The translations under genes were made by a program, and so were the position numbers. A stretch of 64,000 nucleotides of DNA from Escherichia phage LYE-01. The stretch lies in sequence record PQ303785.1; one strand, written 5' to 3'. Below the pieces are notes generated by a model. That model worked only from the letters and a program-made list of their open reading frames with translations. It was not told where the DNA came from and ran no database searches. Within the stretch, counting starts at the first letter, position 1; each line of letters opens with the position of its first letter. This document shows positions 3,513 to 9,748 of the stretch, one piece after another.

Positions 3513-3686
3513 ATGAACACCCAGACTTCTGAAATAGATTATAATAAAATTCGTTCCTCTAAAGTAGAAATGATGAGACGCTTTAAAGAGTCTCATGATA
3601 AAGCTAAAGCAGAAGGAACTATAACATATAAGCGCATAAAATTTAGAAGCTCTAACGAGCCTTTGTATGGCGTATTATGCGGATAG
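3513..3686 (+). CDS. hypothetical protein (57 aa)
   Basis: ORF below the track threshold; stop lies inside a UUCG hairpin. Confidence 0.25.
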   Translation: MNTQTSEIDYNKIRSSKVEMMRRFKESHDKAKAEGTITYKRIKFRSSNEPLYGVLCG

Positions 3687-3710
3687 GAGCTTCGGCTCCT
3701 ATATTGCTTT
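3685..3710 (+). terminator. hairpin AGGAGC-TTCG-GCTCCT with weak T tract
   Basis: Stem with UUCG loop; poor U-run, so may be an RNA stability element. Confidence 0.35.
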
Positions 3711-3752
3711 ATAAATTTTTGGTAAAATAAACCAAAACAATGAGGATATTAA

Positions 3753-4955
3753 ATGAAAGTATGTATTTTTATGGCTCGAGGTCTTGAAGGTTGCGGTGTA
3801 ACTAAATTTTCTCTTGAGCAGCGTGATTGGTTTATTAAAAATGGTCATGAAGTAACTTTGGTTTATGCTAAAGATAAATCATTTACTCGTAATTGCGCGC
3901 ATGATTATAAATCATTTTCAATTCCGGTTTTATTGGCAAAAGAATACGATAAAACACTTAAGCTGGTAAATGATTGTGATATTCTAATTATCAATTCAGT
4001 TCCTGCTACTTCAGTCGAAGAAGACACGATTAATAACTATAAAAAAATTATTGATAACATTAAACCTTCGGTTCGTGTTGTAGTTTATCAGCATGACCAT
4101 TCTTCTCTTTCTTTGCGTCGAAATTTGGGATTAGAAGAAACTGTTCGTCGAGCTGATGTTATTTTTAGCCATTCTGATAATGGCGATTTTAATAAAGTTT
4201 TAATGAAAGAATGGTATCCAGAAACTGTTTCACTGTTTGATGATATTGAAGAAGCACCGACCGTATATAACTTTCAGCCTCCTATGGATATTGCGAAGGT
4301 TCGATCAACCTACTGGAAAGATGTTTCTGAAATTAACATGAATATCAATCGTTGGATTGGTCGTACTACTACATGGAAAGGCTTTTATCAGATGTTTGAT
4401 TTTCACGAAAAACATCTTAAACCTGCAGGACTAAGTACTATTATGGAAGGCCTGGAACGTTCTCCAGCGTTCATTCCTATTAAAGAAAAAGGAATTCCAT
4501 ACGAGTATTATCGTCTTCATCAAGTAGACCAAATTAAAATTGCTCCTAATTTGCCAACGCAAATTCTCGACCGTTATGTAAATAGCGAAATGCTTGAACG
4601 CATGAGTAAATCCGGATTTGGTTATCAGCTGAGTAAGTTGGACAAAAAATATCTACAGCGTTCTTTAGAATACACTCATCTCGAGCTTGGTGCATGTGGA
4701 ACAATTCCGGTATTTTGGAAATCTACGGGCGAAAATTTAAAATTCCGTGTTGATAATACTCCATTAATTTCTCATGATAGCGGTATCGTTTGGTTTGATG
4801 AAAATGACATGGAATCAACATTTGAACGTATTAAAGAACTGTCATCTGACCGAGCTCTTTATGACCGTGAACGTGAAAAAGCTTATGAATTTTTGTATCA
4901 GCATCAAGATTCAAGCTTCTGCTTTAAAGAACAGTTTGACATTATTACAAAATAA
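3753..4955 (+). CDS. agt: DNA alpha-glucosyltransferase (400 aa)
   Basis: 400 aa; sequence matches my recollection of T4 alpha-gt; synteny between 55 and 47. Confidence 0.85.
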   Translation: MKVCIFMARGLEGCGVTKFSLEQRDWFIKNGHEVTLVYAKDKSFTRNCAHDYKSFSIPVLLAKEYDKTLKLVNDCDILIINSVPATSVEEDTINNYKKIIDNIKPSVRVVVYQHDHSSLSLRRNLGLEETVRRADVIFSHSDNGDFNKVLMKEWYPETVSLFDDIEEAPTVYNFQPPMDIAKVRSTYWKDVSEINMNINRWIGRTTTWKGFYQMFDFHEKHLKPAGLSTIMEGLERSPAFIPIKEKGIPYEYYRLHQVDQIKIAPNLPTQILDRYVNSEMLERMSKSGFGYQLSKLDKKYLQRSLEYTHLELGACGTIPVFWKSTGENLKFRVDNTPLISHDSGIVWFDENDMESTFERIKELSSDRALYDREREKAYEFLYQHQDSSFCFKEQFDIITK

Positions 4956-4978
4956 AGGGCTTCGGCCCTTTAGCTTTA
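4955..4978 (+). terminator. GGGCTTCGGCCC hairpin plus T tract after alpha-gt
   Basis: AAGGGCTTCGGCCCTTTAGCTTT. Confidence 0.5.
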
Positions 4979-4994
4979 TACGGAGTTTGATATA

Positions 4995-5135
4995 ATGATA
5001 TTTCTTGGATATGTGATACTTTTTCTGGCGTTTTATTTGTTCACCAGAGCGTGTTGGATTGGGTTCTTTAGTACTCCAGATGGATTTATTTCAATAATTT
5101 TATTTTGCATTTCAATGACGGTTCTTGATATATGA
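4995..5135 (+). CDS. hypothetical small membrane protein (46 aa)
   Basis: Hydrophobic ORF; ATG overlaps an extended -10-like TGATATAAT, so expression is uncertain. Confidence 0.25.
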   Translation: MIFLGYVILFLAFYLFTRACWIGFFSTPDGFISIILFCISMTVLDI

Positions 5136-5755
5136 AAAAATATATAACTTATTTAACAATATATAGTGGAGATAAACTTCCTCCTTTTTATATTGGATCT
5201 ACATCTTTAGACAGGCATTTAGCCGGATATCATGGATCAGTTTTATCTAAAAAGTATAAGAAAATTTATAATGAAGAACTTTCAAATAACCCACATTTAT
5301 TTGATTCATGCATTTTAGATGAATTTGATACACGCGAAGAAGCTATTAAATGCGAGCTATATTATCAACGTTTGCATGATGCGGTTAAAAATCCATTATT
5401 CTTTAATATGTCATATGCTGCTCCAAAAGGTTCATTTGGAAGAGATATTAAAGGACAAAATCATCCATTATATGGTTCTCATAATTGTAAAGGAAACATA
5501 CATTCACATGACCCATTAACAGGAAAATCTGCCTTTTTACCGTATATTCCAGAAGGTTATGTAAAAGGAAGGTCAAATAAATTTAAAGCTTCATCACATA
5601 ATAAAGGTAAAAAATGGTATAATAACGGAGTTAAGCAAATGTTATGTCATGAACCTCCTGGTCCTGAATGGACAAAAGGAAAAATTAAAGAACTAGTTTC
5701 AAAAGCAGCTAAATTAGGATGGAAAAGACACCATGAAAATACTAAACTTGGGTGA
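5132..5755 (+). CDS. GIY-YIG family endonuclease, Seg-like homing endonuclease candidate (207 aa)
   Basis: N-terminus YITYLTIYSGDKLPPFYIGSTS gives GIY and YIG motifs about 11 residues apart; basic C-terminal region (NKGKKWYNNG); overlaps gene 47 start by 23 nt. Confidence 0.6.
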   Translation: MKKYITYLTIYSGDKLPPFYIGSTSLDRHLAGYHGSVLSKKYKKIYNEELSNNPHLFDSCILDEFDTREEAIKCELYYQRLHDAVKNPLFFNMSYAAPKGSFGRDIKGQNHPLYGSHNCKGNIHSHDPLTGKSAFLPYIPEGYVKGRSNKFKASSHNKGKKWYNNGVKQMLCHEPPGPEWTKGKIKELVSKAAKLGWKRHHENTKLG

Positions 5756-6752
5756 TTGGCATTTAGGCGTTAAAGCTGATGATGAATGGATTCGCGGTAT
5801 TCAAATTGATGGAATTAAACAAGCGATAGAATATTCTAAGAAAAATGGAATTACTGTATGGATTCAATACGGTGATATTTTTGATGTACGAAAAGCGATC
5901 ACGCATAAAACTATGGAGTTTGCTCGTGAAATAGTTCAAATGCTTGATGACGTTGGAATCACATTACATACTATTGTAGGAAATCACGATCTCCACTATA
6001 AAAATGTAATGCATCCAAATGCTTCTACTGAGCTTTTGGCTAAATATCCTAATGTTAAAGTATATGATAAGCCTACTACAGTAGATTTTGACGGATGCTT
6101 GATTGATTTAATTCCTTGGATGTGTGAAGAAAATACTGGTGAAATTCTTGAACACATCAAAACTTCATCTGCTTCTTTTTGTGTCGGTCACTGGGAGCTG
6201 AATGGATTTTATTTTTATAAAGGAATGAAATCTCACGGTCTTGAACCTGATTTCCTTAAGACTTATAAAGAAGTGTGGTCTGGTCACTTCCATACTATCT
6301 CTGAGGCTGCTAACGTCAGATATATTGGGACACCATGGACACTAACTGCAGGTGACGAGAATGACCCTCGCGGGTTCTGGATGTTTGATACAGAAACAGA
6401 ACGAATGGAATTTATTCCAAACAACACTACCTGGCATCGTCGAATTCAATATCCATTTAAGGGAAAAATTGACTATAAAGATTTTACAAATCTATCAGTA
6501 CGTGTTATAGTAACTGAGGTAGACAAAAATCTGACGAAGTTCGAATCTGAACTAGAAAAAGTTGTGCATTCATTACGAGTTGTGTCAAAGATTGATAACT
6601 CTGTCGAGTCAGATGATAGCGAAGAGGTTGAAGTTCAATCTCTTCAGACGTTGATGGAAGAATACATTAATGCAATTCCAGACATCACTGATTCTGACCG
6701 CGAAGCACTTATTCAATATGCAAATCAGTTATATGTAGAGGCAACACAATGA
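5733..6752 (+). CDS. 47: gp47 recombination nuclease subunit (Mre11-like, 339 aa)
   Basis: Phosphoesterase motifs (GDWH, GNHD, GHFH); size and synteny as T4 gp47. Confidence 0.9.
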   Translation: MKILNLGDWHLGVKADDEWIRGIQIDGIKQAIEYSKKNGITVWIQYGDIFDVRKAITHKTMEFAREIVQMLDDVGITLHTIVGNHDLHYKNVMHPNASTELLAKYPNVKVYDKPTTVDFDGCLIDLIPWMCEENTGEILEHIKTSSASFCVGHWELNGFYFYKGMKSHGLEPDFLKTYKEVWSGHFHTISEAANVRYIGTPWTLTAGDENDPRGFWMFDTETERMEFIPNNTTWHRRIQYPFKGKIDYKDFTNLSVRVIVTEVDKNLTKFESELEKVVHSLRVVSKIDNSVESDDSEEVEVQSLQTLMEEYINAIPDITDSDREALIQYANQLYVEATQ

Positions 6753-7012: not shown

Positions 7013-7199
7013 CATTAACGATGAATTCATAGCAAATATTGATTACACCGAAGAAGATTCTAGATATGTTGGAATAATTTATATCACATCAAAAGCAGCA
7101 CAAGGTGTTGTTTGCATGGCTGAATTTGATGAATACTTTTTAGATTATGATGATATGATAGAATGGTCTAAAAGATACATTAAAAGGAATCTTTTGTGA
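6993..7199 (+). CDS. hypothetical protein (GTG 6993 chosen; frame open from 6936)
   Basis: N-terminus VKFSTFDINDEF resembles the N-terminus of the downstream HNH ORF. Confidence 0.3.
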   Translation: MKFSTFDINDEFIANIDYTEEDSRYVGIIYITSKAAQGVVCMAEFDEYFLDYDDMIEWSKRYIKRNLL

Positions 7200-8050
7200 A
7201 GAATTTTAAACTTGACATTAATGATGAATTTTTAATAAAGGAATTAGTTGAAAAATTAGCGTTGAGTGAAGAAGACGCCAAGTCTTACATTAATTTTATT
7301 TCTATGAATTCAACTGTTAAAACTCCAGGTAAAACGGAAGCACACCACGTGCTTCCTAAATCAATATTTCCTGAATATTTAAAATCTACATGGAATTTAG
7401 TTAATTTAAGTCATTTTAATCATTTTAAAGCACACTTCTTATTAGCAAAAGGTAAAAATGGAAAAATGCTAAATGCTTTAAATAGAATGATGTCAGGAAA
7501 AACATATAAAAATTTATCTTTAGCCGAAGTTGATTTAATAGCTGCTGAATATAGTTTTATAAAACAAGATGTAAGTGACACAATATCAAAAAGGCTTCAA
7601 CAGTATTATTCAAATCCGCAAAATAGAAATGCTGCTAGAGAAAGGGCATTAAAATATTTTTCAGTAGCAAAAAATAGGAAAGATAACAAAGAAAGATTAA
7701 ATAATTTTAAAACAAAACAAAAAATTTCAATGGCTTCAAGGGAATGGTTTAATAACGAAGAAAATAAAATTAAACACCAAAAGGCTGTTCGTGCTGCTTT
7801 ATCAAAACCTGAATATAAAATAGCTATATCAAATTCAGTAGCTGCTAGTTGGAAAAATCCGGAGATTAGAAAAGCTCATATAGCATCTAGACGAAAAGGC
7901 TATCATTGGGATAATAAAGATAAATTGTATGAATTGTGGATATCATATAATCGTCCTAAACATGTGATGTTTAGGAAAATGTTAGTTAAGAATGGATATC
8001 CAATAGAGGCTTCATTACAGGCTTTAGTTAAAGAATTTTCTTCATTGTGA
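7196..8050 (+). CDS. HNH homing endonuclease candidate (Mob-like, 284 aa, GTG start)
   Basis: HNH motif EAHHVLPKS...NLVNLSHFNHFKAH; C-terminal repeated basic modules; AT/Lys-rich composition; sits between 47 and 46. Confidence 0.65.
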   Translation: MKNFKLDINDEFLIKELVEKLALSEEDAKSYINFISMNSTVKTPGKTEAHHVLPKSIFPEYLKSTWNLVNLSHFNHFKAHFLLAKGKNGKMLNALNRMMSGKTYKNLSLAEVDLIAAEYSFIKQDVSDTISKRLQQYYSNPQNRNAARERALKYFSVAKNRKDNKERLNNFKTKQKISMASREWFNNEENKIKHQKAVRAALSKPEYKIAISNSVAASWKNPEIRKAHIASRRKGYHWDNKDKLYELWISYNRPKHVMFRKMLVKNGYPIEASLQALVKEFSSL

Positions 8051-8065
8051 ACAATTGGATACAAA

Positions 8066-9748
8066 ATGAAATCATTTAAACTTAATAGAGTAAAATATAA
8101 AAATATAATGTCAGTTGGTCAAAATGGAGTTGACATTCAATTAGATAAGGTTCAAAAAACTCTTATTACTGGACGAAATGGCGGTGGTAAGTCTACTATG
8201 TTAGAAGCCATCACATTTGGGCTTTTTGGCAAGCCATTTCGTGATGTAAAGAAAGGTCAATTAATAAACAGCACAAATAAGAAAGAACTTTTAGTTGAAC
8301 TGTGGATGGAATATGATGAGAAAAAGTACTATATCAAAAGAGGACAAAAACCAAACGTTTTCGAAATCACCGTTAACGGTACACGTCTTAATGAATCTGC
8401 CAGCAGTAAAGATTTCCAAGCAGAATTTGAACAGCTTATCGGAATGTCATATGCCAGTTTCAAGCAGATTGTTGTCCTTGGTACAGCAGGGTATACCCCT
8501 TTCATGGGTTTGTCGACCCCTGCGCGAAGAAAGCTTGTGGAAGACCTGCTTGAGGTAGGAACATTAGCTGAAATGGATAAGCTTAATAAAGCACTAATAC
8601 GTGAATTAAATTCACAAAACCAAGTGCTTGATGTTAAAAAAGATAGTATTATCCAGCAAATTAAAATATATAATGATAACGTTGAACGTCAGAAAAAATT
8701 AACTGGTGATAACCTTACTCGTCTGCAGAATATGTATGATGATTTGGCGAAAGAAGCTAGAACGTTAAAATCGGAAATAGAAGAAGCTAATGAAAGATTA
8801 GTTAATATTGTTTTGGATGAAGACCCGACTGATGCATTTAATAAAATCGGTCAAGAAGCATTTTTAATTAAATCAAAAATTGACTCGTATAATAAAGTCA
8901 TTAATATGTATCACGAAGGTGGATTATGTCCAACCTGTTTGTCACAATTAAGTTCCGGTGATAAAGTTGTTTCTAAAATTAAAGATAAAGTTTCTGAATG
9001 CACGCATTCGTTTGAACAGCTTTCAACACATCGTGATAATTTAAAAGTTCTCGTTGATGAATACCGAGATAATATTAAAACCCAGCAGACGTTGGCGAAT
9101 GATATTCGCAATAAAAAGCAATCCTTAATCACGACGATAGATAAAGCTAAAAAGGTTAAAGCGGCTATAGAAAAAGCATCATCCGAGTTTATTGACCATG
9201 CTGATGAAATAGCACTGCTTCAAGAAGAACTTGATAAAATTGTTAAGACAAAAACTAATTTAGTAATGGAAAAATACCACAGAGGAATTTTGACTGACAT
9301 GCTCAAAGATTCTGGTATTAAAGGTGCTATTATTAAAAAGTACATTCCATTATTTAATAAGCAGATTAACCATTATCTTAAAATAATGGAAGCGGATTAT
9401 GTGTTTACATTAGATGAAGAATTTAATGAGACAATTAAATCCCGTGGTCGCGAAGATTTTAGTTATGCTTCATTCAGTGAAGGTGAAAAAGCACGAATTG
9501 ATATTGCTCTTTTATTTACTTGGCGTGATATTGCTTCTATCGTATCTGGTGTTAGTATTAGTACATTAATTCTTGATGAAGTGTTTGATGGGTCATTTGA
9601 TGCCGAAGGTATTAAAGGTGTAGCGAATATTATAAATTCAATGAAAAATACTAATGTTTTTATAATTTCGCATAAAGACCACGACCCGCAAGAATATGGT
9701 CAGCATCTTCAAATGAAGAAAGTTGGTCGGTTTACTGTAATGGTTTAA
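8066..9748 (+). CDS. 46: gp46 recombination nuclease ATPase subunit (Rad50/SbcC-like, 560 aa)
   Basis: Walker A GRNGGGKST, Zn-hook CPTC, coiled-coil middle, C-terminal LILDE Walker B; 560 aa as T4 gp46. Confidence 0.9.
   Translation: MKSFKLNRVKYKNIMSVGQNGVDIQLDKVQKTLITGRNGGGKSTMLEAITFGLFGKPFRDVKKGQLINSTNKKELLVELWMEYDEKKYYIKRGQKPNVFEITVNGTRLNESASSKDFQAEFEQLIGMSYASFKQIVVLGTAGYTPFMGLSTPARRKLVEDLLEVGTLAEMDKLNKALIRELNSQNQVLDVKKDSIIQQIKIYNDNVERQKKLTGDNLTRLQNMYDDLAKEARTLKSEIEEANERLVNIVLDEDPTDAFNKIGQEAFLIKSKIDSYNKVINMYHEGGLCPTCLSQLSSGDKVVSKIKDKVSECTHSFEQLSTHRDNLKVLVDEYRDNIKTQQTLANDIRNKKQSLITTIDKAKKVKAAIEKASSEFIDHADEIALLQEELDKIVKTKTNLVMEKYHRGILTDMLKDSGIKGAIIKKYIPLFNKQINHYLKIMEADYVFTLDEEFNETIKSRGREDFSYASFSEGEKARIDIALLFTWRDIASIVSGVSISTLILDEVFDGSFDAEGIKGVANIINSMKNTNVFIISHKDHDPQEYGQHLQMKKVGRFTVMV

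Follow-up and report, generated by a model that had tools for sequence, protein, structure and literature searches.

T4 SegA has been shown experimentally to be a site-specific endonuclease, which leaves 2-nt 3' overhangs (PMC2988022). More generally, homing endonucleases typically target conserved coding DNA; cleavage by free-standing enzymes takes place at a distance from where they are inserted, whereas intron-encoded ones cut within 25 bp of their insertion site (PMC2988022). The table of T4 mobile elements in the same review gives no endonuclease at the junction of genes 47.1 and 47 (PMC2988022), and our literature searches found no paper on an endonuclease at this position. Here, we describe an open reading frame (ORF) at the 47.1/47 junction of Escherichia phage LYE-01, within a stretch of 64,000 nt (PQ303785.1; hereafter the window) that is a Tequatrovirus (T4-type) segment, its + strand being the T4 minus strand. 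The product is most probably (roughly 80%) a free-standing SegA-type homing endonuclease, with an N-terminal GIY-YIG nuclease domain and a basic C-terminal region that putatively binds DNA.

5132–5755, + strand: endonuclease ORF, probable free-standing SegA-like GIY-YIG homing endonuclease gene; ATG start, 207 aa, N-terminus MKKYITYLTIYSGDKLPPFYIGSTS

Identity of the protein

An earlier note on this DNA, based on the letters alone, had placed an ORF at exactly these coordinates and read it as a Seg-like GIY-YIG endonuclease gene. The ORF is more than a chance reading frame, given its 96–100% amino acid identity in 67 phage records, a ratio of nonsynonymous to synonymous substitution rates (dN/dS) of 0.05–0.09, and a family of 1460 representatives of 50%-identity clusters at E ≤ 1e-3 in a library of 1.84 billion proteins, most of which match only the N-terminal domain of about 117 residues.

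GIY-YIG (PF01541) is the sole Pfam match, at 19.9 bits (E 9e-4) for the whole protein and 22.0 bits (E 2e-4) for its N-terminal half, and the same family is matched at E ≤ 0.01 by 12 of 38 homologues. The protein also matches phrog_10820 (2.3e-93), labelled "HNH endonuclease," and phrog_314 (3e-18), labelled "homing endonuclease." An NCBIfam search returned no match, and searches of the PDB by sequence, using both the single sequence and a family profile, gave nothing meaningful (bL32, E 0.32; Bd3459, E 0.13).

An AlphaFold model built on the 38 homologues (mean predicted local distance difference test [pLDDT] 83; 93–98 for residues 1–90) has the three-stranded sheet flanked by helices of the GIY-YIG fold, and its top three Foldseek matches in the PDB are the I-TevI catalytic domain (probability 0.94–1.00), followed by other GIY-YIG enzymes. 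Among the viral models of BFVD, there are 76 matches at E ≤ 1e-3, and nearly every named one in the first 50 is a GIY-YIG, NUMOD3, Seg-like, homing, or intron endonuclease. We also compared the family profile with two T4 Seg proteins, SegA and SegF, using hhalign; for SegA, this yields a probability of 97.1% (E 4.8e-11) over 179 columns. The Pfam match just under threshold, the I-TevI fold match, and the SegA profile match together uphold the identity proposed earlier, and the homology and motifs shared with SegA justify calling the protein Seg-like.

Many records carry another label for this gene. Annotations as "HNH endonuclease" or "hypothetical protein" are widespread (e.g. RefSeq NC_054901 and NC_054925), while some GenBank records say "homing endonuclease." We give practically no credence to an HNH endonuclease as such, i.e. 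the reading found in RefSeq, in pharokka-style annotations, and in PHROG 10820: it has the label on many records and on phrog_10820 in its favor, but HNH profiles in Pfam give no match at E ≤ 1 for the whole protein or at E ≤ 10 for either half, and both fold and motifs are those of GIY-YIG enzymes, not HNH. Given the lack of any HNH signal in these searches, the label seems to be an annotation error that has spread from record to record.

Catalytic domain

5141–5416, + strand: GIY-YIG catalytic domain, residues 4–95

The domain runs from beta1 (Tyr7) through beta2 (Tyr20-Ile21-Gly22), Arg28, a GY.GS loop (32–39), a helix, beta3, and a helix with Arg68 and Glu75, to Asn92. In the model, strands 4–11 and 19–25 form the motif-A beta-hairpin. 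Across 121 aligned family members, Y7 (within ITY) and Y20-I21-G22 show no or almost no variation (118–119 homologues), Glu75 is found in 120 of 120, and Asn92 in 121 of 121. The glutamate falls at a position known from I-TevI, whose catalytic mutants R27A (1LN0) and E75A (1MK0) we confirmed against the PDB sequences. The window protein itself has an arginine at the motif-B position (R28, six residues after G22). The absence of a GIY-YIG domain, or of its catalytic Arg and Glu, which the earlier note had named as fatal to its own proposal, is not what we find: the domain is detected, Glu75 and Asn92 are invariant, and Arg28 occupies the motif-B position, where most of the family has Lys.

Several observations weigh against the endonuclease assignment. 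The Pfam scores fall 0.6–2.7 bits below the gathering threshold of 22.6 bits, and hhalign of the family profile against single-sequence I-TevI and SegF gave no signal, SegA alone being matched. ITY and YIG stand 12 residues apart (LTIYSGDKLPPF), against a canonical spacer of 10–11; the hairpin is kept, with a loop 2 residues longer than in I-TevI. The N-terminus had been said earlier to fit the GIY…YIG spacing, and of this the hairpin motif with both tyrosines stands, while the spacer lies outside the canonical range. Finally, the motif-B column, equivalent to R27 of I-TevI, holds K in 71, R in 28, N in 13, and Q in 4 of 120 homologues.

Because the motif-B arginine is mostly lysine in the family, catalysis may be organized slightly differently here. 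R68 is present in 116 of 120 homologues, 7 residues before E75 in the same helix; judging from helical periodicity, it would lie on the same helix face as E75 and might take over the role of the motif-B arginine. The subfamily is recognizable by a motif-B column that is mostly Lys, an invariant GY.GS loop that follows it and is common with T4 SegA, and a near-invariant Arg68, a combination that may represent a variant active-site layout.

C-terminal region

5429–5716, + strand: basic C-terminal region, residues 100–195, presumed DNA-binding part (isoelectric point [pI], model, and alignment)

The C-terminal half is basic, as had been proposed: residues 101–207 have a pI of 9.97, with 20 K/R vs 7 D/E. 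It contains a G.NHPLYG linker motif, two beta-hairpins (123–136 and 161–172), including KGKKWYNNG...PGPEWTKGK, and a tail that is disordered in the model (pLDDT below 50) and not conserved between genera; pLDDT is 77–94 for residues 121–150 and 161–190. No Pfam domain was found in this half at E ≤ 10. Specifically, NUMOD3 (PF07460), which the earlier note had put forward for a profile check, gives no match at E ≤ 1 for the whole protein or E ≤ 10 for the C-terminal half; NUMOD3 repeats are present in 20 of 38 aligned homologues having the same N-terminal domain. A zinc finger in this half was considered and rejected, as Cys119 is not conserved in homologues. By analogy with the modular architecture of the enzyme class, and from its basic charge, we infer that the region binds DNA.

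Insertion, distribution, and selection

A pairwise alignment with T4 shows a precise insertion of 601 bp between 47.1 and 47, bounded by 7-bp ATGAAAA repeats. The features involved are as follows.

Gene order: alpha-gt 3753–4955; 47.1 4995–5135; endonuclease ORF 5132–5755; gene 47 5733–6752; 46.2; 46.1; HNH gene 7196–8050; gene 46 8066–9748
4995–5135, + strand: gene 47.1, 46-aa predicted membrane protein (phrog_6693, E 1.5e-31)
5132–5138, + strand: left direct repeat ATGAAAA (7 bp); gene 47 start in T4, endonuclease start in the window
5733–5739, + strand: right ATGAAAA copy, within the endonuclease codons His-Glu-Asn (CAT GAA AAT); gives gene 47 its start codon
5733–6752, + strand: gene 47, SbcD/Mre11-like recombination nuclease subunit (Pfam Metallophos, PHROG SbcD-like); 5' end abutted by the endonuclease element

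The element thus takes over the resident gene 47 start and carries a replacement ATGAAAA start for gene 47 in its own last codons. Upstream, the TGA stop of 47.1 overlaps the endonuclease ATG (ATGA, 5132–5135), and in the T4 annotation gene 47 is coupled directly to 47.1 by an equal 4-nt overlap. Downstream, the endonuclease overlaps the gene 47 start by 23 nt (5733–5755), in agreement with the earlier note. That note had also placed the gene between alpha-gt and 47; gene 47 does follow it, but the immediate upstream neighbor is 47.1, not alpha-gt.

The presence/absence comparison across T-even genomes that had been suggested shows the insert to be polymorphic: it occurs in 68 of 535 phage records matching the flanks, i.e. 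about one in eight T4-type phages (~13%), and is absent from T4, T2, T6, and RB14. The protein is at least 95% identical in 67 phage records. Apart from the insert, phages with and without it are collinear. The dN/dS range given above was obtained against other copies, including an 81%-identical copy in Salmonella phage SEA1, and indicates purifying selection. Both alleles of many flanking polymorphisms are found among carriers; since these other polymorphisms are common to carriers and non-carriers, the element sits on several flanking haplotypes. Phages KNP1 / KNP5 (locus L045, Shigella phage KNP5) were considered as a decayed copy and rejected, their apparent internal deletion being a run of Ns, i.e. 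an assembly gap.

These data bear on whether the protein still acts as an endonuclease. It is very improbable, in our view, that it is a GIY-YIG relic, whether catalytically dead or put to another use, e.g. as a DNA-binding regulator of the 47/46 operon, kept for the gene 47 start at its 3' end. Such a relic would fit an element structurally locked to the gene 47 start codon, as well as Pfam scores under threshold and a motif-B arginine that is not conserved in the family. However, Y7, Y20, G22, E75, and N92 are invariant across the 121 diverse homologues, the low dN/dS covers the whole protein and not just the 3' end, and presence/absence on mixed flanking haplotypes fits ongoing mobility. 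Moreover, SegA, with the same GY.GS motif, is an active enzyme (PMC2988022).

Linked silent changes in gene 47

5741–5750, + strand: endonuclease-linked tract, gene 47 nt 9, 10, 15, and 18 (codons 3–6); all four changes synonymous

Carriers read ATA CTA AAC TTG in these codons, vs ATT TTA AAT TTA in endonuclease-free phages. When flanks from 280 nt upstream to 400 nt downstream were compared among 8 carrier and 16 non-carrier Tequatrovirus loci, each of the four sites had the variant base in 8 of 8 carriers vs 1–2 of 16 non-carriers, and no other flanking site was associated with the insert. A scan of IMG/VR with gp47 gave 28 loci, few of them Tequatrovirus; counting was done with haplotype-specific 62-nt BLAST queries over the whole phage collection, and the resulting junction counts are of records that are not phylogenetically independent.

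Insert + variant tract: 67 records
Insert + T4-type tract: 1 record (ERS-1)
Empty + variant tract: 9 records (8 phages)
Empty + T4-type tract: about 439 records

The insert-free records with the variant tract are Shigella phage SHFML-26 (locus L032), UGKSEcP1/2, PBM-1, Ec_YwIITB1, EPIMAM01, BCPEco_001, and BCPSen_003. Their sequence is exactly what a precise deletion between the ATGAAAA repeats would leave; the nine records may thus be precise-deletion products, or else represent a resistant allele. The single carrier with a T4-type flank, ERS-1 (locus L046, PP337211.1), in which the endonuclease is frameshifted, was set aside as unreliable: the record is UNVERIFIED, its endonuclease gene has indels at homopolymers, its gene 47 a 4-nt insertion, and its alpha-gt several indels, and it is probably a low-quality or chimeric assembly. 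RB14 (locus L047) has an intermediate gene 47 start, ATT CTA AAT TTA, i.e. one of the four carrier-type changes without the insert.

Three of the four introduce G:C pairs, where the stretch is otherwise made of A/T alone. Added G:C pairs in such phages are added glucosyl-hydroxymethylcytosine. The tract is a candidate for self-immunity recoding of the target.

Not all observations favor this interpretation. Four differences in 10 nt somewhere in gene 47 are not rare (P about 0.2), and become so only when the first 18 nt are considered (P 0.008). None of the four sites is more than 18 nt away from the insert, a distance over which recombination would seldom part them, so that linkage alone could account for the co-segregation. 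In SEA1, moreover, the gene 47 codons beside the insert are those of endonuclease-free relatives. There is consequently an appreciable chance, though we do not favor it, that the substitutions are no immunity device and instead are left over from the donor genome, or serve to adjust the overlapping endonuclease tail or the initiation of gene 47 translation. The weak gene-wide cluster statistics, the close linkage, and SEA1 without recoding all suit such an origin, as does the fact that the four changes turn the endonuclease tail from ..NFKFR to ..NTKLG. Against it, the changes occur in 67 of 68 carriers vs 9 of ~448 non-carriers, the sole exception among carriers being the unverified ERS-1 with its frameshifts in gene 47 and alpha-gt; and the disordered tail is not kept between genera.

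Putative target and the same site in other phages

5751–5768, + strand: GGTGATTGGCATTTAGGC, encoding Gly-Asp-Trp-His-Leu-Gly, phosphoesterase motif I of gp47; inferred recognition-site core

Downstream of the linked tract, GGTGATTGGCATTTAGG, which encodes GDWHLG, does not vary among the Tequatrovirus loci examined and hardly varies in other genera. Because conserved coding DNA is the typical target of homing endonucleases (PMC2988022), this stretch is, by analogy, the presumptive recognition core of the enzyme.

At least three further groups of T4-like phages have a homologue at this place, directly before gene 47 and running into its start.

Gelderlandvirus SEA1 (Salmonella phage, locus L044): homologue overlaps gene 47 by 23 nt
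QL01-like locus L024: homologue overlaps gene 47 by 14 nt; tail ..RNENS
QL01-like locus L027: homologue overlaps gene 47 by 4 nt
Klebsiella phage SmallBear: homologue overlaps gene 47 by 17 nt

The ..H/N-E-N tail embedding ATGAAAAT is found in SEA1, L024, and SmallBear as well. An ending in ..(H/N)EN.. is seen in many proteins of the close clade, which suggests the same gene 47 overlap elsewhere.

A broader scenario may be drawn from these patterns, which we offer as speculative and, taken as a whole, unlikely. In Tequatrovirus, Gelderlandvirus, QL01-like phages, and Klebsiella T4-like phages, the clade would long have specialized on the gene 47 start codon, and its conserved H/N-E-N codons would double as the gene 47 initiation region and so block imprecise loss. 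Its target would be the DNA encoding GDWHLG, the Mre11-type motif I of the very nuclease that would process its breaks. Immunity in Tequatrovirus would come from the four silent changes, and the nine insert-free variants would be survivors of precise loss by recombination between the ATGAAAA repeats, resistant to re-invasion.

Long residence at the same site in several genera, together with strong purifying selection, could also point to an active nuclease kept mainly for the benefit of the phage, through exclusion of competitors' markers or through local recombination or amplification, and not as a purely selfish element. Marker exclusion is indeed caused by Seg enzymes (PMC2988022), and SegB is reported in a 2026 paper to promote amplification of anti-defence loci (PMC13096335). 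However, only about 13% of related genomes carry the insert, which is therefore dispensable, and the sequence does not tell benefit from selfish drive. We consider benefit as the main reason for retention improbable; it is in any case compatible with a SegA-type homing endonuclease and not exclusive of it.

Proposed mechanism

The element is transcribed within the 47.1-47-46 unit, and the endonuclease is probably translated by coupling to 47.1. In a mixed infection, by analogy with SegA, SegF, and SegG, the enzyme would cleave the allele without the endonuclease gene, in or close to the 47.1/47 junction, recognition probably relying on conserved DNA at the gene 47 start, including the GDWHLG-encoding stretch. 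T4 recombination-dependent repair would then copy the endonuclease gene, with a short stretch of its flank, from the carrier ("intronless homing"). The carrier itself might be protected by its split site, by the four substitutions, or by both. Retention would be favored because gene 47 takes its start codon from the element and would be damaged by an imprecise deletion.

Transcription signals

No promoter or Shine-Dalgarno sequence belonging to the endonuclease element was found by promoter/terminator scan or in the sequence, and the scan inside the ORF gave nothing above shuffled expectation. Terminator-like matches comprise a weak 5-pair minus-strand match inside the ORF (5168–5184) and otherwise only the stem-loop after alpha-gt. 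The latter is G+C-rich (AAAGGGCTTCGGCCCTTT, 4953–4972) and directly follows the alpha-gt stop. Downstream of it lies GCTT...TATAAT, annotated as a MotA-type middle promoter in the SA20RB record, the -10 hexamer of which abuts the 47.1 ATG; because of this position, middle transcripts may start inside 47.1.

Neighboring endonuclease genes

7196–8050, + strand: MobB-like HNH homing endonuclease gene, between 46.1 and 46; GTG start, 284 aa, phrog_655 "homing endonuclease" (7.8e-45); separate from the GIY-YIG element

The HNH protein is 32% identical to T4 mobB, and its gene is present in 71 of 518 related records and absent from T4 and SA20RB. In T4, mobB occupies a third nearby site, between alpha-gt and alpha-gt.2 (locus L001, 5886–6680), and is absent from the window (3513–3753), where a 57-aa a-gt.2-like ORF abuts alpha-gt at the place of mobB. 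The interval from 55 to 46, of about 5.5 kb, therefore holds three alternative endonuclease sites. The two genes of the window also occur separately: SA20RB has the GIY-YIG gene only, and KMB23 the HNH gene only.

The earlier note had taken the proximity of the GIY-YIG and HNH genes to suggest a homing hotspot. This idea is partly supported: the region does have several endonuclease sites, with an HNH gene that is also polymorphic, but we see no sign that the two elements are linked, as they occur together in 8 records vs about 9 expected under independence.

SEA1 encodes a homologue of the window HNH protein (locus L044, 2827–3006; 48% identity over residues 16–74) directly downstream of gene 47, so that its gene 47 lies between two endonuclease genes.

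Significance

The gene at 47.1/47 is a new, uncharacterized example of a well-known enzyme class, i.e. a tidy rather than a surprising finding. It is a well-delimited addition to the homing-endonuclease set of T-even phages, and corrects the "HNH endonuclease" and "hypothetical protein" labels. No concept is changed, as free-standing GIY-YIG endonucleases and marker exclusion are well established in T4 biology. What the locus does provide is a defined system, with exact insertion boundaries, a candidate 10-nt immunity tract, candidate natural resistant empty sites, and a presumed natural susceptible allele (T4, T2, and T6); with these in hand, target recognition, self-immunity, and co-conversion become testable by few crosses. 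The endonuclease would have a defined A/T-rich target beside a conserved motif, and is thus a possible engineering scaffold.

Comparison with known systems

T4 SegA shares with the window protein the YIG...GY.GS motif, the Glu helix, and the VV.(D/N)P..(Y/F)N ending in a conserved Asn. The two are of similar size (221 aa in SegA vs 207), and both genes are free-standing, on the same strand as their neighbors, and in an early/middle region. In contrast, segA lies between uvsX and beta-gt and the window gene at 47.1/47, presumably with another target; SegA scores 37.4 bits in Pfam GIY-YIG, above threshold, and has a NUMOD3 repeat, while the window protein has neither. The first beta-strand of the window protein is ITY, not GIY, and its gene runs into the downstream gene, whose start codon it supplies.

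The I-TevI catalytic domain (1LN0 / 1MK0) has Tyr, Tyr, Gly, Glu75, and Asn in the same order, the Glu being numbered 75 in both and the Asn being N90 in I-TevI. Unlike I-TevI, the window gene is not intron-encoded, and with 16–19% identity there is no sequence-level match between the two. The window protein has a hairpin loop that is 2 residues longer and a short helix 1 followed by the invariant GY.GS loop. Its family varies at the position equivalent to Arg27, and it is without a zinc finger or helix-turn-helix DNA-binding domain.

NUMOD3-bearing phage GIY-YIG endonucleases (e.g. those of IME281 and Yersinia TG1) have the same N-terminal domain (45–70% identity). The linker motif G..NP.YG is also shared, and in this part the window protein aligns with NUMOD3-bearing homologues only by the half-motif G.NHPLYG. 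The window clade differs in having another C-terminal module, ..NIHSH.P.TG...FLP.IPEG..KGR...KAS.HNKGK.WYNNG...P.GW..GK, ending in (H/N)EN over the gene 47 start.

At the level of the locus, T4 SegG and SegF are comparable, although SegF has no detectable similarity to the window family profile. Each is encoded by a free-standing gene beside a conserved essential or replication-recombination gene and is polymorphic among T-even phages, with carriers that differ from non-carriers by silent changes in the neighboring gene. The regulatory signals of the downstream gene lie inside the endonuclease, which favors retention (PMC2988022). At 47.1/47, by contrast, the linked changes stand directly beside the insertion, at most 18 nt away.

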